From assembly GCA_964657925.1 (NCBI GenBank), contig CAZZWK010000020.1, forward strand, positions 1,359-65,358: 64,000 bases of DNA. The letters run 5' to 3'. Under the pieces are notes generated by a model. The model ran no database searches, had not been told where the DNA came from, and saw nothing but the letters and a program-made list of their open reading frames with translations. The stretch is from an uncultured Dictyobacter sp. Lineage in GTDB: Bacteria; Chloroflexota; Ktedonobacteria; Ktedonobacterales; Ktedonobacteraceae. Shown piece by piece: positions 3,055 through 58,771 of the stretch. The position numbers and the translations under genes are program-made. How positions within the stretch are numbered: position 1 is the first letter of the stretch; each line of letters opens with the position of its first letter.

Positions 3055-3288
3055 CAATGCGCCTGTATACTGTTCGTTTTGTTTCCTTGCGAATAATCGT
3101 CGCACGCTTAATCTCCTTCGATAATCAAACAGATGCAAATAATCTCGGCGTAGATCCTCTCCTTTCGTTTCCTCTCTGGATGGCTCAGAGCAACACTGTT
3201 TGCCCTACCCATCTCCAAAGAGATGATTTATAGATGCAAGTCCAACGAAGAACTTGAGAAAAATTCACACGTGGTCAGAGTTGGAGGC

Positions 3289-5037
3289 TTACTTCACAAA
3301 AGCTTTGACGACCTTGCAGAGCTGCGCATCAGAATTGCGGAGCTGGTAGTGTCCTACACTGGCAGGAATAATGATGCTCTCCGCGAAACGCAATTCAACA
3401 GGATCGCAGCCGTCAACCAGAATGGTGCAGCTTTCTCCTTCAACGAGATTGAGAATATGGAAACGCTCGTGGGTATCATCTGCAATCTGGTCGGTAAACT
3501 CAAAGCGATGAATGGCGAAAAAGAGCTGATCAATATTGCCGATCTGGTATTCTTTGCCGCCCGCCCCCTCGCGCAGAAGCACCGACCGCGGGCACAGGTG
3601 CTCCTCTACCCAGTTCGCCCTTCGGCTCTCGTCAAGATTGGCAAACGCGTGCTCCAGGTGCGTGTGGCGCAGGTTGCCTGACAGATCCTTGCGCAGATAG
3701 TCATAGATCTTGAAGGTGTAAATATAGGGCGTGGCGCTGATCTCCAGCACCAAATTATTTTTGCCACTACAATGGATGGTGCCGCTAGGAATAAGAAAGA
3801 GATCATGGGGATTACTGGGCTGACTATGCACGTAGCTGTCGATCTCAAAAGGGATCGCCTGATCGCGTGCCGCCAACGCGGCCTGCTGGAACTGGCCTAT
3901 ATCGCTCTCATCACGCAGACCCAGGTAAACGCGCGCGCCTGGTTCGTTGGTCACAATATAATACGTTTCGTCCTGCGTAAATGGCTCGCCAAAATGGTTG
4001 CGGATATAGTCGACCCGCGGATGCACCTGGCACGACAGATTGGTACCATCCATGGTATCCAGGTAGTCAAAGCGAATCGGGAAATAGCTTCCATAGCGCG
4101 CAGCGACGGGTACCCCCAGCACCGCATCGGTTTCGGCCCACAAGACATAATCAAAAGAGCACTCAAGAACATCCTCGCCATTCCCCAATAACACACCATT
4201 CTCCGGCGCGATCAGTTCAAACGACCAGGCATAATTAGGCTGTTCAGGCGGTAGACCAAATTGTTCTTTCATCCACTGACCACCCCAGGGACCGGGAGCG
4301 AACCAGGGCTTGACGCGCAAAGGTCGATGGGCCAGTTCATGTAACACCTGGCGAAAATCATCACCGCGCATGATTTTCGGCTCCATAGCCTCGGTCCCAT
4401 CCACAAAAAAGTCCAGGCGCGCCAGTTGTTCGCGCTTGATGAGATTGAGCATCGGCCAATCGACGAAATAGAAGCGCTTATACATGGCCCCAAAAGCTTC
4501 AGGCTGTTCTGCCCCTACATTACAGATGGCCTGCTGTCCAGCCAGTTGTTGAGCGCGATCCTTCGGCACGTCAATATAGACATGAAGCCCCTGCGCGGTT
4601 ACACGCGAGGCGCCGAAGCCTGAGATGACAACGAGCCCGAAGCGACTTTGCTCCTGAAGCTGTGCTTGCAAATGGGCCAGAGCTTCTGGCCTCCAGAACT
4701 CTTGTAGATCGCCGTGAAAGAGCCGTCCAAAGACTGGATCAGTCGTCAAAGAACTTTCCAATAAGCCCTGTATCTCATGAACTGGACGCAAACATGCCTC
4801 GGTTGACAGCCAGAAAACCTCTCGCGTGCCTTTTTCCAGTTCGGAACGTACGTTGGCGAGAAAATCATGCCAGGGCAGTCCCACAAAGCCATCAAGCACC
4901 AGAATGTGAGGGCCATCAAGCTCGTCCAATGCCTGCACAAGCATCTGAACCAGGGCGGCATGACCAGTCTTTACGGACAAGCCGGAAAATATATGGACCG
5001 GGTGGGTACGATAGTGAGATGAAAAGGATGATTTCAT
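3289..5037 (-). CDS. Type I phosphomannose-isomerase-like cupin protein with an N-terminal domain of unknown function
   Basis: 582 aa. The C-terminal half has the metal-site-like signature LSCQVHP, plus ETYYIV and HCSGKNNLVLEISATP, resembling class I mannose-6-phosphate isomerases. It lies in an operon with a GH38-like gene and a sugar ABC transporter. Confidence 0.6.
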   Translation of the reverse strand: MKSSFSSHYRTHPVHIFSGLSVKTGHAALVQMLVQALDELDGPHILVLDGFVGLPWHDFLANVRSELEKGTREVFWLSTEACLRPVHEIQGLLESSLTTDPVFGRLFHGDLQEFWRPEALAHLQAQLQEQSRFGLVVISGFGASRVTAQGLHVYIDVPKDRAQQLAGQQAICNVGAEQPEAFGAMYKRFYFVDWPMLNLIKREQLARLDFFVDGTEAMEPKIMRGDDFRQVLHELAHRPLRVKPWFAPGPWGGQWMKEQFGLPPEQPNYAWSFELIAPENGVLLGNGEDVLECSFDYVLWAETDAVLGVPVAARYGSYFPIRFDYLDTMDGTNLSCQVHPRVDYIRNHFGEPFTQDETYYIVTNEPGARVYLGLRDESDIGQFQQAALAARDQAIPFEIDSYVHSQPSNPHDLFLIPSGTIHCSGKNNLVLEISATPYIYTFKIYDYLRKDLSGNLRHTHLEHAFANLDESRRANWVEEHLCPRSVLLREGAGGKEYQIGNIDQLFFAIHRFEFTDQIADDTHERFHILNLVEGESCTILVDGCDPVELRFAESIIIPASVGHYQLRNSDAQLCKVVKAFVK

Positions 5038-11114: not shown

Positions 11115-11546
11115 TCATGATGTGAACAGTCTGGTGTGAATGGGGTGACAACAGCGACGGAAGAGCAGGCGCATGGGCAAGACCTGCAACTGCTTGCGGC
11201 GGGTGCTAATGGCTCCTTTGGTCGGGATCTGCGCTTCGGCTTGGGGCCAGACGTACAAGAGGCCAGCCGCTATCGTTCGCAGGACCTCCACCACGTTGCA
11301 GGAGGGAAACAGGGAAAGGGCCATGATCAGGGAGATGATGGTGGGCATGTTAAGGGCACGTTCACGCTGTTCCCAGTTCTCACACTCCGAGAGCATGCAT
11401 CCGATCGTCTCGGCTGGATAGCACTCTTGCAAGGCATGCAGCACCAGATGATGGTTCAACTTGTCATCAGCGGGAATTTGGCGTAGTCTAAAGGACATAA
11501 GGAGGTTCCTTTCATATGTGGTTTGTTCATTGTCATTGTATTTCAT
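11115..11546 (-). pseudogene. Remnant of an IS4-family transposase (N-terminal domain only; DDE catalytic domain missing)
   Basis: 143-aa ORF. RERALNMPTIISLIMALSLFPSCNVVEVLRTIAAGL...KGAISTRRKQLQVLPMRLLFRRCC fits the IS4 transposase N-terminal domain pattern. The ORF stops before any DDE domain. Confidence 0.55.
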
Positions 11547-14518: not shown

Positions 14519-16549
14519 CTACGGAAAAGGATGAGGGACCACAGCAGCGCTATCCGGCACAAAATCCGTTTTACGGAACCCGGCGGTCCTGGGCACGGTG
14601 CGCAAACGCGGCAGGCTTAAAGCACGGTCTCGCCCCCAACCAAAATCTATCGGCAAAAGTCCAGGCACGATAACACAGGCCGTCTTCAACCCGCTGCTAG
14701 CCTGCTCAGGAGCCGTCTGATCTACAACGATCACATCCATACCTAGTCGCTGCATATGCTCGATACAAAAGAGCAGATCATCACGCAAATCGTAGCTTCG
14801 CGGGTGCTGCTCGTACCAGTCCCGATACGCCTCCTCTAACACGCGTACCGCTTGACCTTGAAAGAGAAAATCGATACGATCGCCCATCTCCGGTAGTGCA
14901 TACAGCGTCGCATGATCGGTCAATGTCGTTACTTTGCTATAATCCTGAACCATTGCCCGCAAATCCTCGACACGACCCTCGATACGCGCCCCAACATTGG
15001 AAACATAGGACGCAACCTCGCACAAAGCTCCCTGCAATGCGTCTTCCGGGTCCATTCCGCTACCAGCGGCCACAATCAGGTTCCCCAGGCCAGCCTCCTT
15101 CCGACGGGCGATAGCAACCATAGAAGGAATGCACACATCCATACGCGTATCGAAAAGATACAGGTCGTATCCCTGTCGCTCTATACGCTCAAGGGTGAAC
15201 AGGGTTTCGCGCCGCCTGGAACTGCGCGGGTCAATGCGCCCCGGTGCCAGTTGCGCGTACCACGTCAATAGAAAAGCATCGCGTTCGATCAGTTCCAACA
15301 ATCCATACAGTATCGCCTCCTCCATACAACTGCCCGTCGCACAACCATTGGAAGAATCTTGCACAAACTTTGCAGTATTGTTGCGCTGGCTCATATAATA
15401 CACCAGTTGCTCGGGCACCAGCAGGGCACGCTGGCCGCCAAATGAATACCCCCATACCCACGTCATCGCGCGCTCTGGGTCGAATGGCTGAAACATAGCC
15501 GTGTTTTTACGGTAAAATTCCTCAGGATACATACCACACGTGCGAGGGTCCAGGGCATCTGGTGCCAGGCGTTCGTAGCTATCGACAACATGCACGTGTT
15601 TCCCACGTGGGACGATACCACCATAACGCTCGATACCTTCCAGCAAACCCGCGTATAAACTCTGCTGATAACTATTGCCATGTCCACTCCACCAGACTTC
15701 GTAGACAACGGCATCGTTCCTTGCGCCAAACTGACCGGTAACCGGAGCTGTCAGCGTATTGTTCCATTCTGATAGCGCCACGCCACCAAGCATACCTGCA
15801 ACAGGATTGATCAACGCGGACAACGACAACGCATAGTCAGTAGCTCTGCTCAAACGATAGGCAGAGGGGTCCTTTTTCGGACGACTTTGTAAACACAGTA
15901 GCGCCCCTTGCGCGCTATCTACAAACGGTGTCGCACACATCGGGCAGGTTGAATCTCGCAACAGGTGATACCGGCTCACCCGCAACGACTCGCAGTTCAG
16001 CACATAAAAGCATCCTTGTTCCAACACAGGCGTGGTAGCAAGCAGATGAAAGATCCAGGTCAACAAAGAGCCAACCGCGTCCAGCACAAAAGACGGCATC
16101 TGCACACCGGTAGCGGGAACTAGCATCTGCCGTTTCCCGATAAAAGCTGTCTGCACTACCTGCGGGCGCGTGCTAAACCAGCGCCGTTCCAGGCAACAGG
16201 GGCACGCTGCATTAGCCTGGCCTGGATCGAAAAATGGTCCAAAGATGATTTGTGAACGATCGAGCCTGATCGGGTAGACAGGACAATCCTTCCAGTAACG
16301 CGTAGCCGCGTCCCCTTGTGGGCGCGCAGGGTCATCTCCCCGCATCGCATCTTTTGTCCCCAACACTCCTATATCAATCCATACTTGCTCCACCGGAAAA
16401 GCGAGTGCAGGTTTCTCCAGCTCAAAGAGCAATTGTTCCAGGTAGTGGTGGAGTAGATACGACTTCTCGTCTAGCGGCGAGTCGGAAGGTGTTACCACAC
16501 ATTGTATCCTATATTGCCCCAACACACGAGGAGACTCAACAGAAATCAT
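14519..16549 (-). CDS. Fused E1-like (cyclodehydratase C-type) / YcaO azoline-forming cyclodehydratase
   Basis: 676 aa. The N-terminal part has paired Cys motifs CPCCLERRW and CPMC, as in E1-like docking domains. The YcaO-type segments are GNSYQQSLYAGLLEGIERYGG, SSNGCATGSCMEEAILYGLLELIERDAF and GSGMDPEDALQGALCEV. The protein ends in PHPFP (nt 14522..14536), the PxPxP C-terminal motif of azoline-forming YcaOs. Confidence 0.85.
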   Translation of the reverse strand: MISVESPRVLGQYRIQCVVTPSDSPLDEKSYLLHHYLEQLLFELEKPALAFPVEQVWIDIGVLGTKDAMRGDDPARPQGDAATRYWKDCPVYPIRLDRSQIIFGPFFDPGQANAACPCCLERRWFSTRPQVVQTAFIGKRQMLVPATGVQMPSFVLDAVGSLLTWIFHLLATTPVLEQGCFYVLNCESLRVSRYHLLRDSTCPMCATPFVDSAQGALLCLQSRPKKDPSAYRLSRATDYALSLSALINPVAGMLGGVALSEWNNTLTAPVTGQFGARNDAVVYEVWWSGHGNSYQQSLYAGLLEGIERYGGIVPRGKHVHVVDSYERLAPDALDPRTCGMYPEEFYRKNTAMFQPFDPERAMTWVWGYSFGGQRALLVPEQLVYYMSQRNNTAKFVQDSSNGCATGSCMEEAILYGLLELIERDAFLLTWYAQLAPGRIDPRSSRRRETLFTLERIERQGYDLYLFDTRMDVCIPSMVAIARRKEAGLGNLIVAAGSGMDPEDALQGALCEVASYVSNVGARIEGRVEDLRAMVQDYSKVTTLTDHATLYALPEMGDRIDFLFQGQAVRVLEEAYRDWYEQHPRSYDLRDDLLFCIEHMQRLGMDVIVVDQTAPEQASSGLKTACVIVPGLLPIDFGWGRDRALSLPRLRTVPRTAGFRKTDFVPDSAAVVPHPFP

Positions 16550-16647
16550 AGCTCCACTCCTTACGACGCGTAACCGCGTCCCCTTGCGAGCGCATCTCTA
16601 CTTGCAACACGCCTACGCGTTCTCTGAACGCTGACGCTCGTCCTCGT

Positions 16648-17694
16648 TTAAACTGTCTCAAAATCCACCACACCTTTTGCAGCCATATTCTCCTCTAACG
16701 CCCTTCGCATCAAATATGCCAGATAGATCTCATCTGGAATCATTGTTCCCAGACGATTGTTGGTCATATGAATATAGCTTGATAGCAGCATTGTGTAGAC
16801 AAACGCTCGGTCATCAAAGGCCCTTGGCTGATAGTGCGTCAAACTGTTCTGAAAAATCAGTTTTCGCTCGCTGACAAGCGGGTCCAACCTTGCCTTGAGT
16901 TCACGCACATGCGCGGCCCATTCTTGCTCAAAGAAATTCAGCCTTCCCTGCCCTTCCTGTACGCTCGTCTTCTCTAAATGCTGCACGCGCCGCCGCAAGC
17001 TCGGTGCCATCCTCTCGAACTTTTTCTCACATTGAGCTGGGGTCGCGACGGCAGCTTCAGTATAGCGCTCCTTCCAAAATCGTTCGTAGCGGGCCAGAAA
17101 GGTGATCACCGCCTGCTCATCTTCCAGCAGGGCGAAACACAGGGGCAACGCGAGTTGCATGGAGAGACCAAGCATGATCGAACGCACATGCACGTTCGCG
17201 CTACCAATCAATTTGAAAATGAGGTCGCTCGATTTCTCAAAATGCCATTCGGCCACCTCCACGCCGTGGAGACCCCCATATCGCTCGTATTCGGCCTCGT
17301 AAGCAATAAAGTGCAGCGAGTTGTTGGGCCGAACAGGCATAGTATCGCGCTCTCCATACACCTGTCTCCATTTCTCCTGGCTGTATTCCGTGATGAACAT
17401 GCGTTTATAAAAATCCGCCAGGCGCTCACCCTCGGAGGTATAAAGCGATGGGTGCTGCTTCAGATACGCGGCTATGCTTTCTTGAGCCAATGCCTTTACT
17501 TCTTCCGCGACACCCGCCTCAGGCAGCAGTCTGAGCCGTATATGCGGCCCCTCTTGCCAGTATCTGATGAAAAAATAACGTTGAATGAGTTTTCGCCTGC
17601 GACAGACATCAATCAAGGGCGCAATGGCTTCTAGCAGCAACGGCTCCGGACTGCCAGCATAGAAAATATGCATACTGATCCACTGTTCACTCAT
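16648..17694 (-). CDS. Thiopeptide-type/LanB C-terminal-like (SpaB_C) protein: glutamate-elimination enzyme or [4+2] pyridine synthase
   Basis: MSEQWISMHIFYAGSPEPLLLEAIAPLIDVCRRRKLIQRYFFIRYWQEGPHIRLRL and the C-terminal SYIHMTNNRLG are hallmark patterns of this family. ATG 17694 overlaps the upstream stop as ATGAGTGA. The ORF track start at 17730 is less likely. Confidence 0.8.
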   Translation of the reverse strand: MSEQWISMHIFYAGSPEPLLLEAIAPLIDVCRRRKLIQRYFFIRYWQEGPHIRLRLLPEAGVAEEVKALAQESIAAYLKQHPSLYTSEGERLADFYKRMFITEYSQEKWRQVYGERDTMPVRPNNSLHFIAYEAEYERYGGLHGVEVAEWHFEKSSDLIFKLIGSANVHVRSIMLGLSMQLALPLCFALLEDEQAVITFLARYERFWKERYTEAAVATPAQCEKKFERMAPSLRRRVQHLEKTSVQEGQGRLNFFEQEWAAHVRELKARLDPLVSERKLIFQNSLTHYQPRAFDDRAFVYTMLLSSYIHMTNNRLGTMIPDEIYLAYLMRRALEENMAAKGVVDFETV

Positions 17695-20461
17695 CGAAAT
17701 CTCCTGTATTGGTTTCCCACACAAACTCACTCACATACGACCGACCATCCTGCTGCAACCAGAGGTCATCGCGGTCAGGTAACATCTCGGTGATGATCAC
17801 ACCGTCCGTCTCAGCACGCACTGTAGCCTCCAGTAAAGCAAGCGAAAAATAGTTTTCAAAATCGACGTACAGCGGTTTGTACGTTCGTCTTTTTCGCTCC
17901 ACTCCCTGAGCACCATCAGGCTTCACATCCAGGGTCACAAAAACGCTAGCCGGTAGCTTGTGCTTTTTGCGCCAACGCGCGACTCCCAGGAAAAAGTCAG
18001 CGTCGCTCTGGCCGCTTTGCCGCCGCGGGAAAACGCCCGCTTCCAGTTTCCAATAGGCTCGCTGTAAAATCAAGCGTTTATACCTGAGTCGGGGATAAAA
18101 GACTACACCCTCCCGCTTGATACATCTGCCCTCTACTAGCTCACTGGGCACGTTCTTCCATAGATCGAGCAGGCACGTCGTCACAAACGTAAAGTTGAAC
18201 AATACCTGCTGTATCTCCGGTAATGCCATAGGCAACAAAAACCCCAGGTAGAGAGGAATCACTTCTTTACCCAGCCGTTTCGAATAGAGGCGCAACCGTC
18301 CCTGCTCACCATCATCTTGAATGCACAGATCTTCAAGCAAAATCTGTTCATCCTGTGGACGTGAACTTAGATCTCCGGGACAGACAAGTTCATATGCCGT
18401 TACCTGAGGGTGCAGATTCAGGTTCGTCGCATCATAGCCCCCTTTTAACTCCGCGAACACTGCCCCCCGCGGCTGTAGCTGCTCCAGATGCTCGCGTAAC
18501 TCGCAGACAAAATCCTGCCCCTCTTCCGCGTCAAAAAAATGGGCGAAGCGCGAAAACATCAAGGTACAACCTGTATAAATATGATTGATCACAAGACGAG
18601 CCTCATCATTGACCCGCAGGTACTGCGAAAAATACGATTGTGAAGCAAAAGGCGCACCACTCCTCGGCACGTATGGCAATAGCTCTGCAACAAAATCATC
18701 TTCGAGCACCAGTTCATCCTGACCCGCTGGCAGATCTCTATATGCTCGCTCGACAGCGTTGGTCAGCACCTGTTGCGCACTATTTAACTGCTCGATCTCC
18801 GCTTGTTGAAAAAAATTCACATAACGTCTGCCCGAGGTGGTCCCCACTGTCCCCGCGTTTTTTAGATAATGGACGAAAAAGCGCTGACGAAAATCGTAGG
18901 CGAAGGATAAAAAATCATCGCAACATCCGCCCACCCCATACCGGGCCTGAAAATATCCCCTGGTTACTAATCTTTTGGGCAGGTTGAGATCAAAAAGTGG
19001 CAGCACCTGTTGAAACTCGGCTGTGCTATCAAGCATCGGCTGCCACGCTGTTTCGTTGGCGACCAGCTTTTGAGGTCGGAACACCGTATCCTCGTAGAGA
19101 ACCGTCTGCGGAAGTGGAGTGTGCTCCTGCCCCAATAGCGCGTAACATGCGCGCACCAGTTGCTCGACCTCTGCACGTAGACCACGGCGTTCGACGGCTG
19201 ACGCGCGTTCATATGCCTTCGTCACTATCTCGACCCTCGCAAGCCTGCACGCAACCTCCTCTAGAGCAGGGATTTCTATAGCCCGTAATGCCTTGCGGTA
19301 GTAGGCTATAGGATATTTCTGGTGCATATCCACGGCGAGATCAGGAACGACCAGCAGCCCCAGGCGTATAAGATGCGCCAGGTAAGCACCAACCTCCTCA
19401 CACGCGTTTTGAAATGGCGGCAGGTTGCAGAGATCGGCCAGGAGTTGGTGAAAGCGCAGACGACGCCCATCACCCAGCAGATCGATGATGGCGCCTAAAA
19501 GCGATCCGACTGGCAGGTAAAAAATATTTTCATGCACGACCTCCAATGGCGCAACATCACTTTCATCTCTCTCATCCTCACTTTGCATGCGACGCACGTA
19601 TCTGATCTGACCATGCTCCACGCGCCAGCCCGGCGTCAGACTCAGTGGCAGTTCCGCTCGCGTTTGAGGATGGGCCACGATCAGCGCCGCGAGTTTCGTC
19701 AAAATAGCCATATTCAGGCGCGTAAAACTCTTCTTCTGCACATCATCCGCCTGGTAGATGATATCTTTATCACCGGGCAAGGGCGCGAACTTACCCGCGC
19801 ACACCGCAGTAAACGTGCTAAATGGACTCGTCTTGTACGCGCTACGCAAGAGATATTCGAACAGCGAACGCTCAACCGTGCGCAGCGAACGATTGAGTTG
19901 CCGGTGATCGGAGGCAAGATAGGCATCGGTAACGCTGTCGAGGGCTGGACTGGCAAGCGCGATACCTCGACGAAAGTCTTCTATCGCGATGACCTTTTTG
20001 AGCAATACACGCTTCTGATCCATTTCCTGCGACAATATTTCCTGCCCACTCGCCAATAAAAACCGCCACTGCTCCCACATCTGCACCCATTCGGCGAGCA
20101 ACACATACGTCCCCGCGGGAAGAACGCTGGCGAACCTGCTCACCTCTTCGCTCGCGGCAAAGGGTCTCATATTGAAAACATCCCGTTTCACCTGGAGTAG
20201 ACGACTCCTGAGCACTCGCTCCTGAGCGCAAGCACCAATCGCATCATGCAATGCATCCACCAGACTGTCCCTACAGCTGATCAGTTTCTCCTCAAGCGCC
20301 ACGACAGTCTCTATCCACGCAGTGGTTTCGCGAAATTGTAAAACATCGACCGTGTCGGTAGGAAGTCCGCCCACGCGTAACAAAAACGGCGATGTGATCG
20401 TCTTATCCACTGCACCTATAGCACCTGTCATAACATCTTCCCCTCTCGCTCGCATATGCAC
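17687..20461 (-). CDS. LanB-type lantibiotic dehydratase, N-terminal (tRNA-Glu-dependent glutamylation) type
   Basis: 924 aa. It has SPFLLRVGGLPTDTVDVLQF near the N-terminus and a ...YKPLYVDFENYFSLALL... tail typical of Lant_dehydr_N proteins. I recognised no elimination domain. The start may be ATG 20431 (MTGAIGAV), which has a purine-rich SD. Confidence 0.8.
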   Translation of the reverse strand: MHMRARGEDVMTGAIGAVDKTITSPFLLRVGGLPTDTVDVLQFRETTAWIETVVALEEKLISCRDSLVDALHDAIGACAQERVLRSRLLQVKRDVFNMRPFAASEEVSRFASVLPAGTYVLLAEWVQMWEQWRFLLASGQEILSQEMDQKRVLLKKVIAIEDFRRGIALASPALDSVTDAYLASDHRQLNRSLRTVERSLFEYLLRSAYKTSPFSTFTAVCAGKFAPLPGDKDIIYQADDVQKKSFTRLNMAILTKLAALIVAHPQTRAELPLSLTPGWRVEHGQIRYVRRMQSEDERDESDVAPLEVVHENIFYLPVGSLLGAIIDLLGDGRRLRFHQLLADLCNLPPFQNACEEVGAYLAHLIRLGLLVVPDLAVDMHQKYPIAYYRKALRAIEIPALEEVACRLARVEIVTKAYERASAVERRGLRAEVEQLVRACYALLGQEHTPLPQTVLYEDTVFRPQKLVANETAWQPMLDSTAEFQQVLPLFDLNLPKRLVTRGYFQARYGVGGCCDDFLSFAYDFRQRFFVHYLKNAGTVGTTSGRRYVNFFQQAEIEQLNSAQQVLTNAVERAYRDLPAGQDELVLEDDFVAELLPYVPRSGAPFASQSYFSQYLRVNDEARLVINHIYTGCTLMFSRFAHFFDAEEGQDFVCELREHLEQLQPRGAVFAELKGGYDATNLNLHPQVTAYELVCPGDLSSRPQDEQILLEDLCIQDDGEQGRLRLYSKRLGKEVIPLYLGFLLPMALPEIQQVLFNFTFVTTCLLDLWKNVPSELVEGRCIKREGVVFYPRLRYKRLILQRAYWKLEAGVFPRRQSGQSDADFFLGVARWRKKHKLPASVFVTLDVKPDGAQGVERKRRTYKPLYVDFENYFSLALLEATVRAETDGVIITEMLPDRDDLWLQQDGRSYVSEFVWETNTGDFDE

Positions 20462-20492
20462 ACCTGCACCGGTTGATACATCTGCCCTCTAC

Positions 20493-22139
20493 CTAAACAA
20501 ATTGAGCATTGAAACTGGCATTATTTTTGAGGCCATAGCCGATGGGGAGAAAAAGCATCGAACGCTCGTCCATACCATCCAGGCCAAGGGCTGTGTTCAA
20601 GGCAAGATTGTCGAATCCGAGCGCGGCCCCACAATTGAAACCGAGAGCGCTCGATGCCAGATAAGCACTTTGCGCCACCAGTCCCACCTCGGCATTCAAA
20701 ATTCTATAACCCCGATTTCCATAAGCGGCGAGCATGCGATGCGGTTTTCCCACAATCACCAGCAGAGCCGCCACCTCGCCCAGGTTATAGTTGCGCAGAA
20801 AGTAGTGCTGCTGGAGAAAAAGAGAAAAATCCTGACGAGACACCTCCCACAAACAGTGTCGCGTGGAGTCATACGCGTAGGCACCGCGTTGGAGACCCTC
20901 GATATTGTTTACAAATATCATCAAACGTGTGAAAGCAGGCGTTTCATCCTGATCGCTGCGATACGAGCGACAGGCCGACACAAAGGCAAGCATCGTCGCG
21001 AAATGCGCTAATTGCAGGGGGCAACAACTTGAAAAACGCCCAAACCCCGATTGCCGCCGCCGAAAAATGTCCAGCAGGTCGTCTTCAAGCAACGCCTGCA
21101 CCGGCTCAGGAAGCGCGATAGCCCCCCTGAATTCACCTGACTCGCCGGGCTGACTAAACCAGTCGCAACTCGCTTCGCGCACGACCTTGGCATCAGGAAG
21201 CGGCTCTTCTGAAATTAGAGAGGAGAAATGCACCGCTTCGACGGTAGGGAACCGCGTCACACGTTTGGAGCGCTGGAACGCTGGTCTTGTAACGTATGGC
21301 TCGCTCTTCCCTGGCAACAATTCCCGTTGCCCAGAAGATTCGTCGTGTTCGCCGCAAGCGGGAAGGGGAATCACCACAAAAGCGCTCTCAGACGCCGTTT
21401 CAAGGCCGAGCAGCCGATTCAATTCTTCGTCGCAATACCAGAAGAGAAAAGGCAGGTCAATACCTAAACCCGTACCCAATAGGCGTAAAGATCCCAAAAG
21501 TGCCCCTACATCCTGGGTAACCACGTGGTAAGCATACGAATGATACTTGAAGGCATTCTTCCAGAAGTTGAGCGATACGACAAGAAACTGATCGGTCGCC
21601 AGCGCGGTAGGATGATTGCGTACGGCGACACGAATGCGTCGCGTAAAGTCACCAACCAATAAACGTGCCAGCGCGTGATGGGCCGGATCATAGTGATACA
21701 CACCCGCTCGCAAAGATCCACCTTGCCCACACACCCAGAAAAGTTCCGTGGGATACCTTCCCCCACCCGAGGCTGTACCACGTCCAAAGATGGTCTGAGC
21801 ATAACGCGTCCGCTCACGCTCGTCACGATTCCAATTCACATCAAAACGACGATTGAGCAGGCCGTGCGCGAAAAGCAATAGCGTGGAAAGATCCGCGAGA
21901 TTCATCCCAGCGGAGACCGCTAGTGGGGAACTGATGCGATCGAGTATATGCGCCATTGAGGCAAGCTTCCGCGGAACACAGTCCGGCAAGGGGAAACGCT
22001 CAACCTGTCGGTACACTTTATAACGCGAGGGTTGATCTTTCCAATCAGGAACAAAATTTTTCGGCTCCATCGGCTCGACACCGTGACGAAAAACAGCCTC
22101 AATATAGCGCGTACAAATATCCGTTTGTCGATTGAGCAT
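20493..22139 (-). CDS. SagB/McbC-type FMN-dependent azoline dehydrogenase
   Basis: DWKDQPSRYKVY is an N-terminal SagB-type signature. NFWKNAFKYHSYAYHVVTQDVGALLGSL carries the Lys-Tyr motif. The C-terminal nitroreductase fold reads NRGYRILNAEVGLVAQSAYLASSALGFNCGAALGFDN. I prefer ATG 22139 (SD ggaag upstream) because the ORF track start 22193 lies inside a hairpin. Confidence 0.8.
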   Translation of the reverse strand: MLNRQTDICTRYIEAVFRHGVEPMEPKNFVPDWKDQPSRYKVYRQVERFPLPDCVPRKLASMAHILDRISSPLAVSAGMNLADLSTLLLFAHGLLNRRFDVNWNRDERERTRYAQTIFGRGTASGGGRYPTELFWVCGQGGSLRAGVYHYDPAHHALARLLVGDFTRRIRVAVRNHPTALATDQFLVVSLNFWKNAFKYHSYAYHVVTQDVGALLGSLRLLGTGLGIDLPFLFWYCDEELNRLLGLETASESAFVVIPLPACGEHDESSGQRELLPGKSEPYVTRPAFQRSKRVTRFPTVEAVHFSSLISEEPLPDAKVVREASCDWFSQPGESGEFRGAIALPEPVQALLEDDLLDIFRRRQSGFGRFSSCCPLQLAHFATMLAFVSACRSYRSDQDETPAFTRLMIFVNNIEGLQRGAYAYDSTRHCLWEVSRQDFSLFLQQHYFLRNYNLGEVAALLVIVGKPHRMLAAYGNRGYRILNAEVGLVAQSAYLASSALGFNCGAALGFDNLALNTALGLDGMDERSMLFLPIGYGLKNNASFNAQFV

Positions 22140-22158
22140 AGTCTCTTCCTGCTCGCAC

Positions 22159-22201
22159 GATGACTTTGCCTCGCACAGGCGCGCGCAAGGCAAAAGTCAT
22201 C
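22159..22201 (-). promoter_or_regulatory. Intercistronic stem-loop between the precursor gene and the dehydrogenase gene
   Basis: gatgactttgcc (22159..22170) pairs with ggcaaaagtcatc (22189..22201) with a one-base bulge, and a few further inner pairs follow. It lies about 40 nt after the precursor stop and 19 nt before ATG 22139. Confidence 0.5.
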
Positions 22202-22240
22202 TACTCCGCGCCCACAAGGGAACGCGCCTACGCGATCAAA

Positions 22241-22444
22241 CTAAATCGTGCTACAACTACTGCTGCAACAACTTGTCGTGAAACATGTGTTACAGGATTG
22301 CACCGGCAAAGCCCCGTCGGCCTGCTCAGAAGTGATCAAATCTTCAATTTCAAATGTCTCTATGTCGAGCTGATGCAGTTCTTCTTGCAGGTTGCTAAAT
22401 GGACTCATTAGCTTCGGCATATGTTGTTGTTCCTGAATTGGCAT
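22241..22444 (-). CDS. RiPP precursor peptide (thiopeptide-like): leader plus Cys/Ser/Thr-rich core SCNTCFTTSCCSSSCSTI
   Basis: 67 aa: MPIQEQQHMPKLMSPFSNLQEELHQLDIETFEIEDLITSEQADGALPVQ-SCNTCFTTSCCSSSCSTI. A strong SD (aaggagga) lies 5-6 nt upstream of ATG 22444. In the last 18 residues, 15 are Ser/Thr/Cys. The gene sits between modification-enzyme genes. Confidence 0.85.
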   Translation of the reverse strand: MPIQEQQHMPKLMSPFSNLQEELHQLDIETFEIEDLITSEQADGALPVQSCNTCFTTSCCSSSCSTI

Positions 22445-22498
22445 CCTTTTCCTCCTTTCTCTCCTGATGATTTAAATACCAACCTCCGCCTCTATCAG

Positions 22499-24823
22499 TT
22501 ACGCGGACCTCGTCAGCAAAACAGTTCCACTCATCATCGTCCCCGCATTCCAGATATCAGCGGTGGTAGTATTCACAAAAAGAATGTCACGCCCCTGCTT
22601 ATAGAGATACTCTTCCAGATGCTGCACATCCACAAACGTTTTCTGAAAACTGCGCGTGGACGCAAGGGGCGAGACAAAATCGAACGTAGGGACAAATTCT
22701 GGAAGAAACAAATCTTTATCTATATGATGCTTATTCCCAGGCCCAACCACATTCCCATCTCTAGCGGCAAACGCGTAGGGCAAACCATGCGTTTGCTCTA
22801 CGCGTTCGCCCAGAGCTTCAGTAAGGTCGCCCCGCTTTTCATAAAGCAGCGTTTGCAACTTCCCTATCAACTGGAGTAATGCATTTCTGGCCGCATGAAT
22901 AGAAGAAAGCCCATAGCCGATTCCGCAAGGCTGCTGCACACTTTCGCCATTTGTGCAGACCGCCAGCATAAGAGGAAGTGGCGAAGCGGACAAAACCTCA
23001 AAAAGTGTGTACTGGTACTCGAAATGCCGTAGGCTGCGCAACAAAAAAGTCAGGTCCGCATCAATATCTTCCAGTGTTTCTGGGTCGATCACAGCCACCG
23101 CGATACGTCCCTGGAGCGCTTCTTGTATATGCTCATAAGCCAGGGCGGAGGTAAGACCCGTAGCCAGCATCTCCCCAAAACTCGTGTGCACTCCTGAGCC
23201 TGCTGAAGTCCTTTCAAAAACACAGCGCCGGTTGAGATAGCTAGTGGGGTAGACGGCTGCGGCAGGGACGTAACACACGCGTTGCCTGGAGAACGAAAAC
23301 GCTGGCAACCACTCACAGCGCGTGTCCTCCATAAAAGCAGCCACGCCCGACCAGCCAGCAAGTTGTTGTGCCACGATAGCATCTTTACCCTGTCGCACCA
23401 GCTCGCTACGCTTTGCCAACAGCATCGTGCGAACGTCGGGTAGACTGTTTGTATACTGCCCGATCGCCTCGCGTAAAACGGCCATACGCGCATCAAGCAG
23501 CGTCCCGCTCTCAAAGGCCATCACCACAGGGGAGGTCGAAAGCACCGGAGAGGCGACCGTCAGTTGGCTGACTTTGAGAGGAAGCTGGATCAATGTATCG
23601 TCCTGGTAATCACTCAACAAACCAGTATGCGCTTGCATGAGCACATCTGCGCGACGCAGGACATCGGCATCTGATACCCTATCTCGCTTCCCTTCGACAA
23701 CTTCGAGCAAGATTTGCGCAGCGCGCTCAGGACTACCCTGAGAACACAGCGGACAGAGCGGATACTGCATCAGGCTTTCGTGATAGGACTCCATCGTCTC
23801 CGTGTCCTGGCAGATAATCCCTGCATCCAGTTCCGAGGGGAGATGTCCTGCAAAGAGTTTGAAAAGCTCAAAACCGACGGCGTTACCGACATGCCTGGCG
23901 ATGGGAGTAAAAAATGTGGTATCTGCGCTGGTCAACGCGTTATCAAGCACAAAGGATTTCCATAGCGTGGTTCCCTGCTCTGCGGACATGCGCGCCGCAA
24001 GACGCACCTGCGCGCATAACCAGCACGGACCCCCCGGTTTTACGATTGGTCCAAGCACAGCCTGCCCTGCGCAAAAAACTACCGGTAGAAACTGGCATCC
24101 TTTACGCATACAGTTCTTTTGCAACGCGAGCACCTCCGTGAACGCACTCGTGTCCGAGCAGTAAACAACCGTATCGTAATCAGCTGATCTCTGAAAAGAT
24201 GGGGCGTCACGCGGATCAAAACCAATCTTCGACACACATACCTCGACCCCGGATTGGCATATGTTGTCCACCTCAGCCTCTAGTTGCCGTAGAGCAGTAT
24301 CCCCTTCATCCAATAATGCCAGGGAAAGGTCTCTGATCCCATTGCGCATCAAAGAAATCCCTAAAGCGACAAAAGCCTCGCCCGCACCAACAAGCAGCAC
24401 ACGACTCTGCCTGAACGCCTTGAATCTCTCCACCGGTCGGTCGGCATAGTGATCGATGAGCTCAATCTGCGCTCGAAAACGGCGCAGCACCTCGTCATCC
24501 AATAATCCGGCAGCCTCAGGGATGCATTGCTTGAGCACGCCCCTTTGCAACAACGTATCGATCAGACGTAGAACCGTCTCCCGTTGCGTTGCTCCTAGCC
24601 CCTCGCATAACTCATTTACCGTGTGCTCCCCATTCATATGTGGGCTTAAAGTGGCAAGCAATTGATACACGGATCTCCCTTTTAGTGAAAACACCGCATC
24701 ATCGCTTTGCAAGAAAACACCATCCCTGCTCTGCAGAAAAATTGAGTTCTGCTTGAGCTTTGGACGCACTTCAGCAAGGTTATCCATCATCCACTCCTGT
24801 CGGCGGGCGGCCTCTCTCATCAT
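22499..24823 (-). CDS. Ocin-ThiF-like (E1-like) RiPP maturation protein with an N-terminal RRE-type winged helix and a C-terminal degenerate YcaO-like region
   Basis: 774 aa. GRSVYQLLATLSPHMNGEHTVNELCEGLGATQRETVLRLIDTLLQRGVLK looks like a RiPP recognition element. VLLVGAGEAFVALGISL is a Rossmann-like glycine motif. The C-terminal half (ARMAVLREAIGQYTN, ERTSAGSGVHTSFGEMLATGLTSALAYEHIQ, GYGLSSIHAARNALLQL) parallels YcaO blocks with altered key residues, and there is no PxPxP tail. The start may be ATG 24790 or 24787, after an AGGAG. Confidence 0.65.
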   Translation of the reverse strand: MMREAARRQEWMMDNLAEVRPKLKQNSIFLQSRDGVFLQSDDAVFSLKGRSVYQLLATLSPHMNGEHTVNELCEGLGATQRETVLRLIDTLLQRGVLKQCIPEAAGLLDDEVLRRFRAQIELIDHYADRPVERFKAFRQSRVLLVGAGEAFVALGISLMRNGIRDLSLALLDEGDTALRQLEAEVDNICQSGVEVCVSKIGFDPRDAPSFQRSADYDTVVYCSDTSAFTEVLALQKNCMRKGCQFLPVVFCAGQAVLGPIVKPGGPCWLCAQVRLAARMSAEQGTTLWKSFVLDNALTSADTTFFTPIARHVGNAVGFELFKLFAGHLPSELDAGIICQDTETMESYHESLMQYPLCPLCSQGSPERAAQILLEVVEGKRDRVSDADVLRRADVLMQAHTGLLSDYQDDTLIQLPLKVSQLTVASPVLSTSPVVMAFESGTLLDARMAVLREAIGQYTNSLPDVRTMLLAKRSELVRQGKDAIVAQQLAGWSGVAAFMEDTRCEWLPAFSFSRQRVCYVPAAAVYPTSYLNRRCVFERTSAGSGVHTSFGEMLATGLTSALAYEHIQEALQGRIAVAVIDPETLEDIDADLTFLLRSLRHFEYQYTLFEVLSASPLPLMLAVCTNGESVQQPCGIGYGLSSIHAARNALLQLIGKLQTLLYEKRGDLTEALGERVEQTHGLPYAFAARDGNVVGPGNKHHIDKDLFLPEFVPTFDFVSPLASTRSFQKTFVDVQHLEEYLYKQGRDILFVNTTTADIWNAGTMMSGTVLLTRSA

Positions 24824-27773: not shown

Positions 27774-29999
27774 CTACAGATACCGGCTGGTCAGGGATTC
27801 TTTGGCGTCGAGCAGATCGCGAGGGGTGCCTTCGAAGATGACCATACCGCCCTTGTGGCCGCCTTCCGGACCCATATCAATGATCCAGTCGGCGTTGCGA
27901 ATCACATCGAGGTGATGCTCAATCACAATCACGGTGTTCCCGCCATCGACCAGCCGATTCATGATGGTGAGCAGGCGACCGATATCCGACAGATGCAGGC
28001 CGGTGGTGGGCTCGTCCATGACGTAGATGTTGCTCTGCTTGTGGAGTTCGCTGGCGAGTTTGATGCGCTGGCACTCGCCACCTGAGAGGGTGCTCAAGGG
28101 CTGGCCCAGGGTCAGGTAGTCCAGACCCACGTCGCTCAACGCCTGCAGCTTTGGCTGCACTGCTTTGATCTTCAAAAACGCCAATGCCTGCTGAACGCTC
28201 ATATTCAAAACATCAGCAATGGATTTCCCGTTCAATGGGTAGGCCAGTACCTCGTCCTTAAAGCGTTTCCCACCGCACACTTCACAAGGAAGCTTGACCC
28301 CCTCAAGGAAACCGAGATCGGTGTAGATTACACCAAGTCCCTGACAGTTAGGACAGGCACCCTTTGAGTTAAAACTAAACAGGCCAGCATCGACATTGTT
28401 GGCTGCTGCAAAAGCCTTGCGCACATCATCCATGATGCCGCTATAGGTCGCGGGATTGGAACGACTGGAAGTGCTCAGGGATGATTGATCAATCACCACC
28501 GCCTCCTGGTGCTGACCCAGAAAGGCTTCATTGATTAACGAGCTTTTGCCTGAACCAGCCACGCCAGTGATGACCGTCAGCACGCCAGTGGGAATATTCA
28601 CACTGACATCCCGCAAATTATTCGCTGTAGCGTGGACAATTGGCAGAGCGCCGGTCGTCTGGCGAAAACTCTCCTTAAGCGGCCTCTTACGCAGTAAATG
28701 GTTGCCGGTCAGCGTATCGGCCTGCAGCAGACCGCTGAAATCACCCTCATAGACAACCTTGCCTCCTTCGCTCCCGGCATATGGTCCCATATCGACGACG
28801 TAATCGGCCCGCTGAATCACATCAGGATCGTGCTCGACGACGATGACTGTGTTCCCTTTGTCGCGCAACTTTTCCAGCAGTTCGTTCAGACGATGGACAT
28901 CGCGCGGGTGAAGTCCGATGCTCGGCTCGTCAAAGATGTACATGACATCGACCAGGCTACCGTTAAGATGCTTGACCATTTTGACCCGCTGCGATTCACC
29001 CCCAGACAGGGTATCGGTGGATCGATCCAGGCTGAGATACTCCAGGCCAATCTCCACCAGATGGCGCAGCCGTTCGGTCAACGTGCGAACAATTGGCGCC
29101 GCCGGTTCTGTGATATCCTTGACGACCTCTAAAAGCTCATCAATCTGCATCGCTGCCATATCGGCAATAGTGTAGCCATTGATTTTGCAGCTCAGCGCTG
29201 CTTGATTGAGCCGGGCACCCTTGCAGAGCGGACAGGGGCCGAGCTTCAAAAAAGGCTCGACCTTTTGTCGTATGCGAGGCGAGAGCGTCTGGATATCGCG
29301 CGCAACAAACCTACGATTGAACTTGTACACCAGACCCTCATAGGTGTTGTACGGCAGATCGGTACGTTTGCGCGGCTCGCTGTAGAGCAGCAGATCCCGT
29401 TCCTCTGCTGTATAATCGGCTATCTTCTTGTCGTTGTCGAAGTAGCCAGAACGGGCATAAAGATCGCTCTCCCAGCCAGCCAGTCCCGGGGCGATGACAG
29501 CGCCCTCGTTCAACGATTTTGTTGTATCGATCAGCGCTTCCGAGGTAATGCCGACCTTACGGCCCAGGCCATTGCACTCCAGGCACATGCCCTGTGGATC
29601 ATTGAAGGAAAAGGCATTGGCAAGACCTACATACGGCTTTCCGATGCGTGAAAAGAGCAAGCGCAACACTGGCGCGATGTCAGTGACCGTGCCCACGGTC
29701 GATTGCGATCCGCCCCCCAGGCGTTTCTGGTCAACAATCACCGCCATGCTCAGGTTCTCGATCACATCGGCGTCTGGTTGGGGATAGCGCGGCAGAAAAT
29801 TGCGTACAAACATACTAAAATTCTCAAACAGGAGCCGTTGCGCTTCGTTGGCAATGGTATCAAACACCATTGAGGACTTCCCTGAGCCAGATACGCCGGT
29901 AAAAATGATGATTTTGCGCTTGGGCAGCCTCAGCGAGACACCCCTCAAATTGTTCTCGCGCGCACCCCGAATCTCAATGTATTCCTGAGACATACTCAT
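27774..29999 (-). CDS. UvrA-like ATPase paralog (short form, two ABC modules)
   Basis: 741 aa. The N-terminus reads IEIRGARENNLRGVSLRLPKRKIIIFTGVSGSGKSSMVFDTI. The second Walker A is TGVAGSGKSSL. Signature-type LSGGE motifs (LSGGESQR, LSGGECQR) and zinc-module Cys pairs (CPLCKG, CPNCQG, CEVCGG) are present. Confidence 0.85.
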   Translation of the reverse strand: MSMSQEYIEIRGARENNLRGVSLRLPKRKIIIFTGVSGSGKSSMVFDTIANEAQRLLFENFSMFVRNFLPRYPQPDADVIENLSMAVIVDQKRLGGGSQSTVGTVTDIAPVLRLLFSRIGKPYVGLANAFSFNDPQGMCLECNGLGRKVGITSEALIDTTKSLNEGAVIAPGLAGWESDLYARSGYFDNDKKIADYTAEERDLLLYSEPRKRTDLPYNTYEGLVYKFNRRFVARDIQTLSPRIRQKVEPFLKLGPCPLCKGARLNQAALSCKINGYTIADMAAMQIDELLEVVKDITEPAAPIVRTLTERLRHLVEIGLEYLSLDRSTDTLSGGESQRVKMVKHLNGSLVDVMYIFDEPSIGLHPRDVHRLNELLEKLRDKGNTVIVVEHDPDVIQRADYVVDMGPYAGSEGGKVVYEGDFSGLLQADTLTGNHLLRKRPLKESFRQTTGALPIVHATANNLRDVSVNIPTGVLTVITGVAGSGKSSLINEAFLGQHQEAVVIDQSSLSTSSRSNPATYSGIMDDVRKAFAAANNVDAGLFSFNSKGACPNCQGLGVIYTDLGFLEGVKLPCEVCGGKRFKDEVLAYPLNGKSIADVLNMSVQQALAFLKIKAVQPKLQALSDVGLDYLTLGQPLSTLSGGECQRIKLASELHKQSNIYVMDEPTTGLHLSDIGRLLTIMNRLVDGGNTVIVIEHHLDVIRNADWIIDMGPEGGHKGGMVIFEGTPRDLLDAKESLTSRYL

Positions 30000-47200: not shown

Positions 47201-47314
47201 TTTACTGCGACCAATAATCGTAACGGCCTTGGTAATCGGGAAAGTACTTTGAGTGAGCGAACCAGCAAGAAAGGTAATCGAAGCCATTATTTGTGGTTTT
47301 TGTTCGAGAGCCAC
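44249..47314 (-). CDS. Triple-FHA-domain ABC transporter (FHA x3, ABC ATPase, ABC-2/ABCG-type permease), Rv1747-like architecture
   Basis: 1021 aa. The FHA cores are VTIIGRSKKNDIVVTDTVVSRVHARL, VVNIGRDPHNDIVINEANISRLHLRL and AIVIGRSPDNDVVLNHPQVSAHHTRL. Walker A is GGSGAGKTTLLDALSG and the signature is LSGGQRKRVSIA. The C-terminal part is a multi-TM ABC-2 domain. GTG 47314 is preceded by aagggga. Confidence 0.85.
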   Translation of the reverse strand: MALEQKPQIMASITFLAGSLTQSTFPITKAVTIIGRSKKNDIVVTDTVVSRVHARLIYGDDVWKIEKLSQTSKVTLNEEAVEQAELFDGAIVGLGEKVNFVFSLTRIDTSQPTTVIAVPAAQDQDRVVTDAHLDVQAASAEPASEYPTPERIERSPSTEIASFAAMGLSSIEVTDNTTGSRRVYPLLKEVVNIGRDPHNDIVINEANISRLHLRLVHEKEQWVLLHPHPDQPRTMNGLIYQGNVIKGDEPFRKVLAHRDIFRIGNEYGLLVTLRYLDGNNPREAAPRIQPIQLGSTAIVIGRSPDNDVVLNHPQVSAHHTRLVQEQETYRLTDLDSTNHTYINGVQADSQLLQVNDEIRIGPFRLVYTQGRLMPFDESNGIRIDALNLTKVGSNQVMLLNDISLSIPARSFVALVGGSGAGKTTLLDALSGLRPAHEGAVFYNGQDYYRNLAVFSSQLGYVPQDDIIHRELTVERALYYAAKLRLPRDFQEAQIALRIDEVLDDVEMKHRRSLLISQLSGGQRKRVSIALELLAKPSIFFLDEPTSGLDPGLDRKMMVLLRKLADKGHTIVLVTHATNNINVCDYVCFLAQGGNLAYFGPPEEAKAYFQQPDFAEIYSVLEPSEEKRTVPLEARETFENSQTYQRYVSERLSQMPKSGTQYLREQKQQVSASRRGALRRQFLLLTRRYIELLRNDFGNLAILLLQAPLFGLLLLVFIKGVGPDGFNRLNVLQCPATAAIVAVNGYPDVPTPNNPVVSQSCQRVENFLRDDAAGKAYAHARGGAINALQDFIEPGQDYQPTVLFLMAFAAIMFGCINAIREFVKEVPIYRRERTVNLGIVPYMFSKIAVLGLLCLLQSLVLVGCVAIFDPFRYSILLPPFLEVYITVALTSIAGLMLGLLVSAVSPNNDRAMSFLPLILLPQVIFSGTIFPLTNWFLQYPAMLFPIRWAMAALGSSVGLHSDKLNKDQLFGNTYTYHSTLFSIYSQQEAWHYLLLMWLALVVMILLLGVGIGYFLKRKDIQK

Positions 47315-53762: not shown

Positions 53763-53789
53763 GACATCTTCGACAAAGTATTTTATATA
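53761..53789 (+). promoter_or_regulatory. Sigma70-like promoter of the lanA-lanL operon
   Basis: TTGACA (53761..53766), a 17-nt spacer, then TATATA (53784..53789). The SD aggaggg (53817..53823) precedes ATG 53830. Confidence 0.55.
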
Positions 53790-58760: not shown

Positions 58761-58771
58761 GCCCTACCCCC

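Follow-up and report, generated by a model that had tools for sequence, protein, structure and literature searches.

We analysed a six-gene operon at positions 14519-24823 of a 64,000-nucleotide stretch of DNA from an uncultured Dictyobacter sp. (the whole stretch is referred to as the window), which encodes a precursor peptide together with an F-like protein, a SagB-type dehydrogenase, two LanB-type proteins and a YcaO enzyme. Judging from the sequences, the operon probably makes a ribosomally produced and, after translation, modified peptide (RiPP) with thiopeptide-type enzymes but without ring closure, and it is expected to yield a polyazole/dehydroamino-acid peptide that has no pyridine and is most likely linear. 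The argument turns on the only SpaB_C-type protein of the operon: if it is a glutamate-elimination enzyme, the operon would make azoles and dehydroamino acids without a [4+2] enzyme. An earlier note on this DNA, made from the sequence alone, had read the locus as a mixed thiopeptide/goadsporin cluster whose product class was not predictable. Its gene functions, precursor type and count of a single SpaB_C protein hold up, whereas the picture of an idiosyncratic hybrid does not, and the class of chemistry can be predicted from the elimination-type SpaB_C protein and the missing [4+2] enzyme.

The single SpaB_C protein resembles glutamate-elimination enzymes

Thiopeptide clusters encode two SpaB_C-type proteins with different jobs. 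As references we took three clusters from annotated plasmid records, each with an elimination enzyme and a cyclase: the micrococcin cluster of pBac115 (TclL and TclM), a thiomuracin/GE37468-type Streptomyces cluster (a TbtC-like protein and a TbtD-like protein that NCBI names a pyridine synthase and that scores 434 bits on model NF045556), and a lactazole-type cluster (LazF-like and LazC-like proteins). The SpaB_C protein of the window, referred to here as LanB-C, matches PF14028 with 153 bits and TIGR03891 with 95 bits (cut-off 48), and the latter model is also passed by its relatives and by 3/3 elimination references, while the cyclases give no hit at all (0/3). In tblastn searches with LanB-C, the hits were TclL, the TbtC-like protein and the N-terminal domain of the LazF-like protein, while TclM, the TbtD-like and the LazC-like protein were not hit. 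The corresponding blastp scores were 74, 66 and 62 bits for the elimination references, against 51 bits, 35 bits and no match for the cyclases. Moreover, on profiles built from three sequences each, the protein scored 109.7 bits as an elimination enzyme versus 33.3 bits as a cyclase, and the same approach classed 6/6 references correctly in a leave-one-out run.

This assignment is in line with the residues at the presumed active site. When NisB (4wd9, native numbering) is aligned to the family profile, its residues R786, R826 and H961 correspond to R55, R138 and H309 of the 348-residue protein, which lie in the motifs GPHxRLR (as its second Arg), ERYGG and YIHMTNNRLG, respectively. Neither family alignment shows any variation at R55 or H309, whereas R138 is invariant only in alignment A2, which has 15 sequences. 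The three reference cyclases all have a Tyr at the H961 position, which is probably the equivalent of PbtD Tyr293, the residue mutated in PDB 8ejz, and none has an Arg at the R826 position. Garg et al. in 2013 and Ortega et al. in 2015 are said to have found that mutating R786, R826 or H961 of NisB leaves glutamylated intermediates. Split LanBs have kept every residue that serves elimination in NisB (PMC8546558). Taken together, LanB-C is best described as a predicted glutamate-elimination enzyme and not a pyridine synthase.

No second SpaB_C-like sequence was found in a six-frame profile search of the whole 64 kb, in which the SagB and LanB-N proteins were included, and the earlier observation that there is only one such protein therefore stands, also for the DNA adjacent to the operon. 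Two layouts in which a second domain is hidden in another protein were considered and rejected. A LazF-type arrangement, with the elimination domain fused to the dehydrogenase and the free SpaB_C protein acting as the cyclase, does not fit the SagB protein, which consists of two nitroreductase-like halves and has no Lant_dehydr_C hit. An elimination domain at the C-terminus of LanB-N is likewise not seen: PF04738 spans residues 162-843 of this protein, and the roughly 80 residues left give no profile hit.

The other enzymes and the precursor are of thiopeptide type

The 676-residue YcaO protein has a truncated E1-like domain that is fused to a YcaO domain ending in PHPFP. It passes TIGR03604 (331 bits, cut-off 219), matches PF02624 (283 bits) and, at residues 90-254, TIGR03882, and retains intact ATP/Mg motifs (alignment A3). 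LynD, TruD and MusD match it from about residue 163 on, corresponding to LynD 265-751. Since the similarity to LynD begins only at LynD residue 265, the YcaO enzyme is without a RiPP recognition element (RRE).

Such an element is carried by the 774-residue F-like protein, of which residues 22-98 match the RRE of PbtF (PDB 8t19, E 4e-4) and are followed by an E1/ThiF-like domain with a CxxC...CxxC pattern. The protein matches TIGR03693 with 135 bits over residues 17-432, the N-terminal two-thirds of ocin_ThiF_like, which is under the cut-off of this equivalog model built on Bacillus proteins and is the sole domain call under its curated cut-off; these matches bear out its earlier description as a ThiF-like protein with an RRE. 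TIGR03882 follows at residues 245-372 and a weak YcaO match to PF02624 at 441-757 (66 bits). Indeed, the F-like protein aligns with the cyclodehydratase through the CxxC...CxxC region and the entire YcaO domain, in which, both in the window and in its relatives, the ATP/Mg motifs ExxER and ExxERD have degenerated and no PxPxP tail is left (A3). We read it as a full-length cyclodehydratase paralogue that appears to have turned into a dead-enzyme scaffold, and the two proteins are predicted to form an F-protein-dependent cyclodehydratase, made up of an RRE-less fused C-D enzyme and an RRE-bearing partner. Partners in canonical clusters are shorter (TclI, 242 residues; TbtF-like, 469; LazD-like, 597) than the F-like proteins of this family, which have 660-774 residues.

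The earlier note had taken the combination of a goadsporin-style fused C-D enzyme with an extra ThiF-like protein as the mark of a hybrid. The YcaO protein of the thiomuracin-type cluster L009 shows the same TIGR03882 plus TIGR03604 architecture, and according to Cox et al. (2015, PMC4603692) the cyclodehydratase of thiostrepton/thiocillin-type clusters is a single fused protein, joined in 85% of cases by a leader-binding ocin-ThiF-like F protein. A fused E1-like/YcaO enzyme with a ThiF-like partner is thus canonical for thiopeptides of the thiostrepton, thiocillin and thiomuracin type and is no mixture of patterns.

The dehydrogenase passes TIGR03605 (161 bits, cut-off 78) over residues 99-276 and a second stretch, with PF00881 at 440-553, and its two nitroreductase-like halves have no fused elimination domain. 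LanB-N matches PF04738 (153 bits) and is predicted to glutamylate its substrate in a Glu-tRNA(Glu)-dependent manner; its best solved relative is TbtB (6ec7, E 6e-45, 157 bits), with GodF (9jhq, E 4e-17, 65 bits) a weaker match. The lactazole enzyme LazB did not accept tRNA(Glu) and GluRS from E. coli (PMC7210931). The hidden Markov model searches thus support every domain call that had been made for the LanB, YcaO and SagB proteins.

The precursor gene is preceded by a strong Shine-Dalgarno sequence, AAAGGAGG, 6 nt upstream of its ATG. Its product passes the thiopeptide precursor model TIGR03892 by a narrow margin (25.8 bits, cut-off 25), mostly on account of the leader, and so marginally agrees with the thiopeptide-type label given to it before. 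The leader contains the segment ...LDIETFEIEDL..., and of the 18 residues of the core, SCNTCFTTSCCSSSCSTI, 15 are Cys, Ser or Thr (5 Cys, 6 Ser and 4 Thr).

The gene set is shared by a widespread family

A scan of one genome per species identified relatives in 241 species genomes from Ktedonobacteria and Actinomycetota. We fetched 80 of these loci with 10-kb flanks, of which 74 show the whole region and 6 are short contigs that reveal the downstream part of the gene order only. The gene set was invariant in the full-region loci (74/74), which encode, always in this order, an F-like protein, 1-5 precursors, YcaO, SagB, LanB-N, LanB-C and a membrane protein with an HExxH motif, and in 74/74 of them the corresponding gene was the best match of every enzyme of the window. 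What had looked like a non-standard enzyme complement is the standard complement of a large and widespread family. LanB-C shares 40-79% identity with its relatives overall and 50-79% with those from Ktedonobacteria, with values of about 40-47% in Micromonospora, Streptomyces, Kribbella and many other actinomycetes; the best relative in the species-genome scan is that of Ktedonosporobacter rubrisoli (55%).

The HExxH membrane protein is present in 80/80 related loci. It matches the Pfam M50 model weakly and the model NF041824 for the daptide intramembrane metalloprotease with 151 bits, and it is fused to an RRE. In the daptide pathway, MpaP is an RRE-dependent leader peptidase (PMC10028931). 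In addition, a related subfamily from Streptomyces and Catenulispora contains ABC (ATP-binding cassette) genes along with an M20 peptidase and a third YcaO protein. Some loci carry an extra full-length, apparently active E1-like/YcaO protein 3' of the protease (L004 13729-15828, L010 15456-17243, L095 14033-15979 and L096 14057-15991), which occurs neither in the window nor in most Micromonospora loci. In the locus of Micromonospora sp. M12 (L090, 595-12731), every cluster gene is broken into reading-frame fragments, as in a pseudogenised copy or a poor assembly.

The precursors of the family share the acidic leader motif L-x-x-L-E-t-E-T-F-E-I-E-D and cores of 20-30 residues that consist almost purely of Ser, Thr and Cys; the leader motif of the window and Ser/Thr/Cys-rich cores were found in 75 related loci. 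The actinomycete loci L015-L091 hold 2-4 precursor paralogues each (at about 2500-3500 in each locus), and the actinomycete core SSSCSCSSCCSCSTSSCCSTSTSTSSCG is near-invariant across Micromonospora, Streptomyces, Kribbella, Saccharothrix and others, a degree of conservation that is unusual for an antibiotic precursor. One actinomycete member lies at 3.66 Mb in CP002638 of Micromonospora maris AB-18-032. The cores of Ktedonobacteria are variable.

The window holds a rearranged variant without the protease

Only two features set the window apart from the rest of the family: its YcaO gene has moved to a position after LanB-C, unlike in 74/74 full-region loci, and a search of all frames of the 64 kb found no homologue of the HExxH protease. 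The YcaO gene likewise directly follows LanB-C in the closest relative, a metagenome contig with 79% identity (L092), and the next relative (59%) has the protease in its usual place. A comparison of three genes between the window and L092 gave ratios of nonsynonymous to synonymous substitution rates (dN/dS) of 0.13-0.15 at a dS of about 1.0-1.4, which indicates that the rearranged form is maintained by selection. The window represents the variant of a sub-lineage, kept up by purifying selection, and the rearrangement is no one-off accident. Because the lineage lacks the HExxH peptidase, leader removal must fall to an unlinked protease.

The same features could be taken as signs of a decaying remnant, in which the YcaO gene was moved, the protease deleted and no mature product is made, and the absence of a linked transporter and an IS4 transposase fragment at 3 kb from the operon's 3' end would fit such a history. 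We consider decay unlikely, given that all six open reading frames are intact and have ribosome-binding sites, that the order of LanB-C followed by YcaO recurs in the 79%-identical relative from an independent metagenome, and that the low dN/dS values speak for purifying selection. The transposase fragment itself, an N-terminal piece of the IS4 family at 11115-11546 (-), is compatible with a past rearrangement.

Proposed pathway and product

We infer all steps of the pathway from homology. The RRE of the F-like protein would bind the leader of the precursor and hand the core to the RRE-less E1-like/YcaO enzyme, which, using ATP, would cyclodehydrate Cys and possibly some Ser/Thr residues to azolines. 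The SagB-type flavoprotein would then oxidise these azolines to azoles. The 924-residue LanB-N would glutamylate Ser/Thr with Glu-tRNA(Glu), and LanB-C would eliminate the glutamate to leave dehydroalanine or dehydrobutyrine. With no [4+2] enzyme encoded, neither a pyridine nor a cyclase-mediated expulsion of the leader is expected, which is consistent with the separate leader peptidase of the family. Up to 15 of the 18 core residues are predicted to be modified in the product, for which the fate of an individual Ser/Thr, oxazole or dehydroalanine/dehydrobutyrine, cannot be predicted.

Four points weigh against a linear, pyridine-free product. First, the structural model of LanB-C (predicted local distance difference test score 89.7), which has the LanB elimination/cyclase fold, is placed by Foldseek closer to TbtD, PbtD and TsrL (TMq 0.64-0.72) than to the elimination domains of NisB, MibB and MadB (0.47-0.57). 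Second, the LanB-C proteins of the family score 103-110 bits on the pyridine-synthase model NF045556, versus 49-57 bits for the reference elimination enzymes. Third, the core opens with Ser-Cys and has an SSSC motif like Ser10-Ser11-Ser12-Cys13 of lactazole (PMC7210931), so that a [4+2] substrate is conceivable. Fourth, a cyclase or a protease could be encoded outside the visible 64 kb.

The first two points, together with a length of about 350 residues that exceeds those of TclL (267 residues) and the TbtC-like protein (324 residues), would suit a SpaB_C protein that is bifunctional for elimination and [4+2] cycloaddition, or is itself the cyclase, and hence a macrocyclic thiopeptide made with one enzyme fewer. 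We regard this as highly improbable. LanB-C has a His where 3/3 reference cyclases have a Tyr, keeps the full NisB elimination triad and reaches 110 bits on the elimination profile against 33 on the cyclase profile. In addition, we know of no solved structure of a stand-alone elimination protein, for which reason the Foldseek ranking does not discriminate between the two functions. The family proteins reach about twice the NF045556 score of the reference elimination enzymes although the cyclase Tyr is absent from them and the elimination triad is preserved.

The other two points could instead be accommodated if this were an ordinary thiopeptide cluster served in trans by a pyridine synthase from another part of the genome, and the match of the precursor to a thiopeptide precursor model would fit this as well. 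Such an arrangement is nevertheless very unlikely. Not only does the 64 kb contain no cyclase-like sequence, but a cyclase is also missing within 10 kb on either side of the related loci that were fetched (0/80 loci, in 80 species), from which it follows that its absence characterises the family and did not come about by loss at this locus. Moreover, the long and near-pure Ser/Thr/Cys cores of the family are unlike known thiopeptide cores, and the relatives encode a dedicated peptidase for the leader. Pathways that form a pyridine can do without one, since there the leader is expelled by the cyclase.

A further alternative is that the peptide receives an additional, unpredicted cross-link or modification, for example a lanthionine-type addition of unmodified Cys to dehydroalanine or a reaction in which the degenerate YcaO domain assists, and is neither linear nor a thiopeptide. 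The retention of this domain across the family, the wealth of Cys nucleophiles and potential Ser/Thr-derived Michael acceptors in the cores and the near-invariant actinomycete core, which suggests a product with a defined three-dimensional structure, are all compatible with this idea. We find it quite unlikely, as no LanC, radical S-adenosylmethionine, cytochrome P450 or other tailoring gene lies in the operon or is conserved in the family, and the degenerate YcaO domain is without ATP/Mg ligands.

For the family as a whole, we offer a bolder reading that is possible but rather doubtful: near-complete conversion of the core on a dead-enzyme scaffold might yield a hypermodified peptide that is new in structure, with a contiguous run of azoles and dehydroamino acids and perhaps spontaneous or scaffold-assisted cross-links, and that serves a conserved physiological role. 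If this were true, the near-invariant core in mycelial, spore-forming actinomycetes and the presence of the family in mycelial Ktedonobacteria would point to such a conserved role and not to a diversifying antibiotic, with signalling during development (as for goadsporin), metal binding or nucleic-acid binding as candidate functions.

Returning to the predicted linear azole/dehydroamino-acid peptide, automatic tools label such loci 'thiopeptide', which would be an over-call for a clade of at least 241 species unable to make a pyridine ring. A thiopeptide-like cluster without a cyclase would not by itself surprise a specialist; it is the size of the family, its substrate and its pseudo-enzyme scaffold that add interest. 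The family is a compact discovery target of six or seven genes for which we found no described product, and a substrate made of Ser, Thr and Cys only would put to the test how identical residues are shared out by YcaO and LanB enzymes to become azoles or dehydroamino acids. Furthermore, its F-like protein may be a natural case of a cyclodehydratase paralogue becoming a leader-binding scaffold. The window would represent a minimal, protease-less version in which the leader stays on, and this could be useful for heterologous work.

Operon layout and neighbouring genes

The six co-directional, tightly spaced minus-strand open reading frames described in the earlier note were all recovered at the positions given there (Table 1).

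Table 1. Genes of the operon, listed in the direction of transcription
Feature	Position	Strand	Length	Supporting matches and features
F-like scaffold protein (putative)	22499..24823	-	774 aa	TIGR03693, TIGR03882, PF02624, PbtF RRE match
Precursor peptide	22241..22444	-	67 aa	Thiopeptide-type leader motif LHQLDIETFEIEDL, core SCNTCFTTSCCSSSCSTI; TIGR03892
SagB-type FMN-dependent azoline dehydrogenase (predicted)	20493..22193	-	566 aa	TIGR03605, PF00881
Split-LanB glutamylation enzyme, LanB-N (predicted)	17687..20461	-	924 aa	PF04738
Split-LanB glutamate-elimination enzyme, LanB-C, SpaB_C (predicted)	16648..17694	-	348 aa	PF14028, TIGR03891
F-dependent E1-like/YcaO cyclodehydratase (predicted)	14519..16549	-	676 aa	TIGR03604, TIGR03882, PF02624

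The longest open reading frame of the SpaB_C gene covers 16648-17730 (360 residues). The 8-nt overlap ATGAGTGA between the LanB-N and SpaB_C genes makes the ATG at 17694 the likely start, in agreement with the starts of homologues. This overlap had been pointed out before, as had the PHPFP end of the YcaO protein, whose C-terminus reads VVPHPFP. The SagB frame begins with a TTG at 22193 and has an alternative ATG start at 22139, and the ATG of the YcaO gene is preceded by the Shine-Dalgarno sequence GGAG. Scans of the locus for consensus promoters and terminators gave counts at or below the shuffled expectation, and a search for an attenuator hairpin 3' of the precursor gene gave no signal (z = 0.05).

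In agreement with the earlier description, our domain survey found no transporter, protease or regulator inside the operon. The 3' flank encodes an Abhydrolase_3 protein, a TetR regulator, a short-chain dehydrogenase/reductase (SDR), the IS4 fragment and a sugar ABC importer, the 5' flank a LytR protein, a PD40 propeller protein and a UvrA-like paralogue, and the flanks hold no transporter, protease or regulator that is tied to the operon. Except for an occasional SDR, no flank gene of the window recurs near the 80 related loci; as the flank genes are not family-associated, the cluster boundaries coincide with the ends of the six-gene operon.

The UvrA-like gene lies 3 kb upstream on the operon strand (27774-29999, -), and its product lacks about the first 265 residues of UvrA and scores 747 bits on TIGR00630. 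UvrA-like paralogues can confer resistance to DNA-binding metabolites. We rejected a role in linked self-resistance, since such a gene is found near 0/80 related loci. Further away, the window contains a second RiPP locus at 50174-61804, in which a class III lanthipeptide synthetase with RamC_N, Pkinase and LANC_like domains (54113-56851, +) is accompanied by a MalT/LuxR regulator (50174-53200), a FAD_binding_4 oxidoreductase (57186-58760) and an ABC exporter (58772-61804) that carries a cyclic-nucleotide-binding domain at its C-terminus. Two fusions were also noted: a thaumatin-family domain (259 bits) joined to a CBM56 carbohydrate-binding module, a type of protein that is uncommon in bacteria (39536-40780, +), and a 1021-residue protein in which three FHA domains are combined with an ABC ATPase and an ABC-2 permease (44249-47314, -).

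Comparison with known systems

No characterised member of the family was found in the accessible literature, with core-peptide strings included in the search and subscription papers outside its scope, so that the possibility of an already described compound, raised by the earlier note, found no support there. Several characterised systems share parts of the machinery. Goadsporin, made by GodA and GodD-H of Streptomyces sp. TP-A0584, is a linear peptide with azoles formed by a YcaO enzyme and a flavin mononucleotide (FMN)-dependent dehydrogenase and with dehydroalanines introduced by GodF/GodG, without a [4+2] enzyme (PMC5303826). The window shares with it the set of cyclodehydratase, dehydrogenase and split LanB in the absence of a [4+2] enzyme. 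However, GodD needs no F protein, whereas the window has one; GodB, a peptidase-ABC protein for leader removal and export, and GodH, which carries out N-acetylation, have no counterpart in the window, and the operon flanks contain no peptidase-ABC, GNAT (GodH) or ffh-like (GodI immunity) gene. LanB-N scores 65 bits with GodF versus 157 with TbtB, and the goadsporin core retains many unmodified residues, unlike the window core with its 15 modifiable residues out of 18. We therefore regard the window as an example of goadsporin-like chemistry that is apparently carried out by thiopeptide-clade enzymes.

The coryneazolisin clusters, whose product is unknown, have two YcaO proteins, LanB-like dehydratases, no [4+2] enzyme and Cys/Ser/Thr cores (Cox et al., 2015), and the window resembles them by published description only; no Corynebacterium sequence was among the best 120 hits of either of two protein searches. 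In heterocycloanthracin biosynthesis, about 100 residues are missing from the N-terminus of the cyclodehydratase, and leader binding is provided by a separate ocin-ThiF-like protein (PMC4603692). The window has a similar pair of an RRE-less cyclodehydratase and a separate partner, and the similarity of the F-like protein to TIGR03693 lies in the N-terminal half of the model. In contrast to the window, heterocycloanthracin clusters are without a LanB dehydratase, and the C-terminal half of TIGR03693 is unmatched in the F-like protein, which has a degenerate YcaO domain in its place. The dehydrazoles, such as carnazolamide, arise by Ser dehydration and Ser/Thr/Cys azole formation with very few enzymes (Pei, Zhu and Nair, 2023, PMC10676384) and are, like the product predicted here, hypermodified azole/dehydroamino-acid peptides. 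We rejected them as a counterpart, because their DUF4135 (LanM-type) dehydratase, fused to a cyclase domain, is unrelated to the tRNA-dependent split LanB.

The closest ties are to the thiopeptides thiomuracin (Tbt), thiocillin/micrococcin (Tcl) and lactazole (Laz). Like their clusters, the window has a precursor with a TIGR03892-type leader, an F protein with a PbtF-like RRE, an RRE-less E1-like/YcaO enzyme of the thiomuracin-type architecture, a two-halved SagB and a split LanB whose nearest counterparts are TbtB (157 bits) as well as TclL, TbtC and the N-terminal domain of LazF. Of the elements by which thiopeptide clusters are recognised, it thus contains the YcaO enzyme with its F/RRE partner and dehydrogenase, the split LanB and the precursor, but not the [4+2] enzyme. 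Indeed, a TclM/TbtD/LazC-type enzyme is missing from the window and all 80 related loci alike. The family further differs from the thiopeptides in its F protein, a 660-774-residue paralogue with a degenerate YcaO domain in place of a partner of 242-597 residues, in its dedicated HExxH leader peptidase and in its longer, almost purely Ser/Thr/Cys cores. What emerges is a known enzyme logic at work in an uncharacterised and widespread family, of which the window is a rearranged, protease-less sub-variant.

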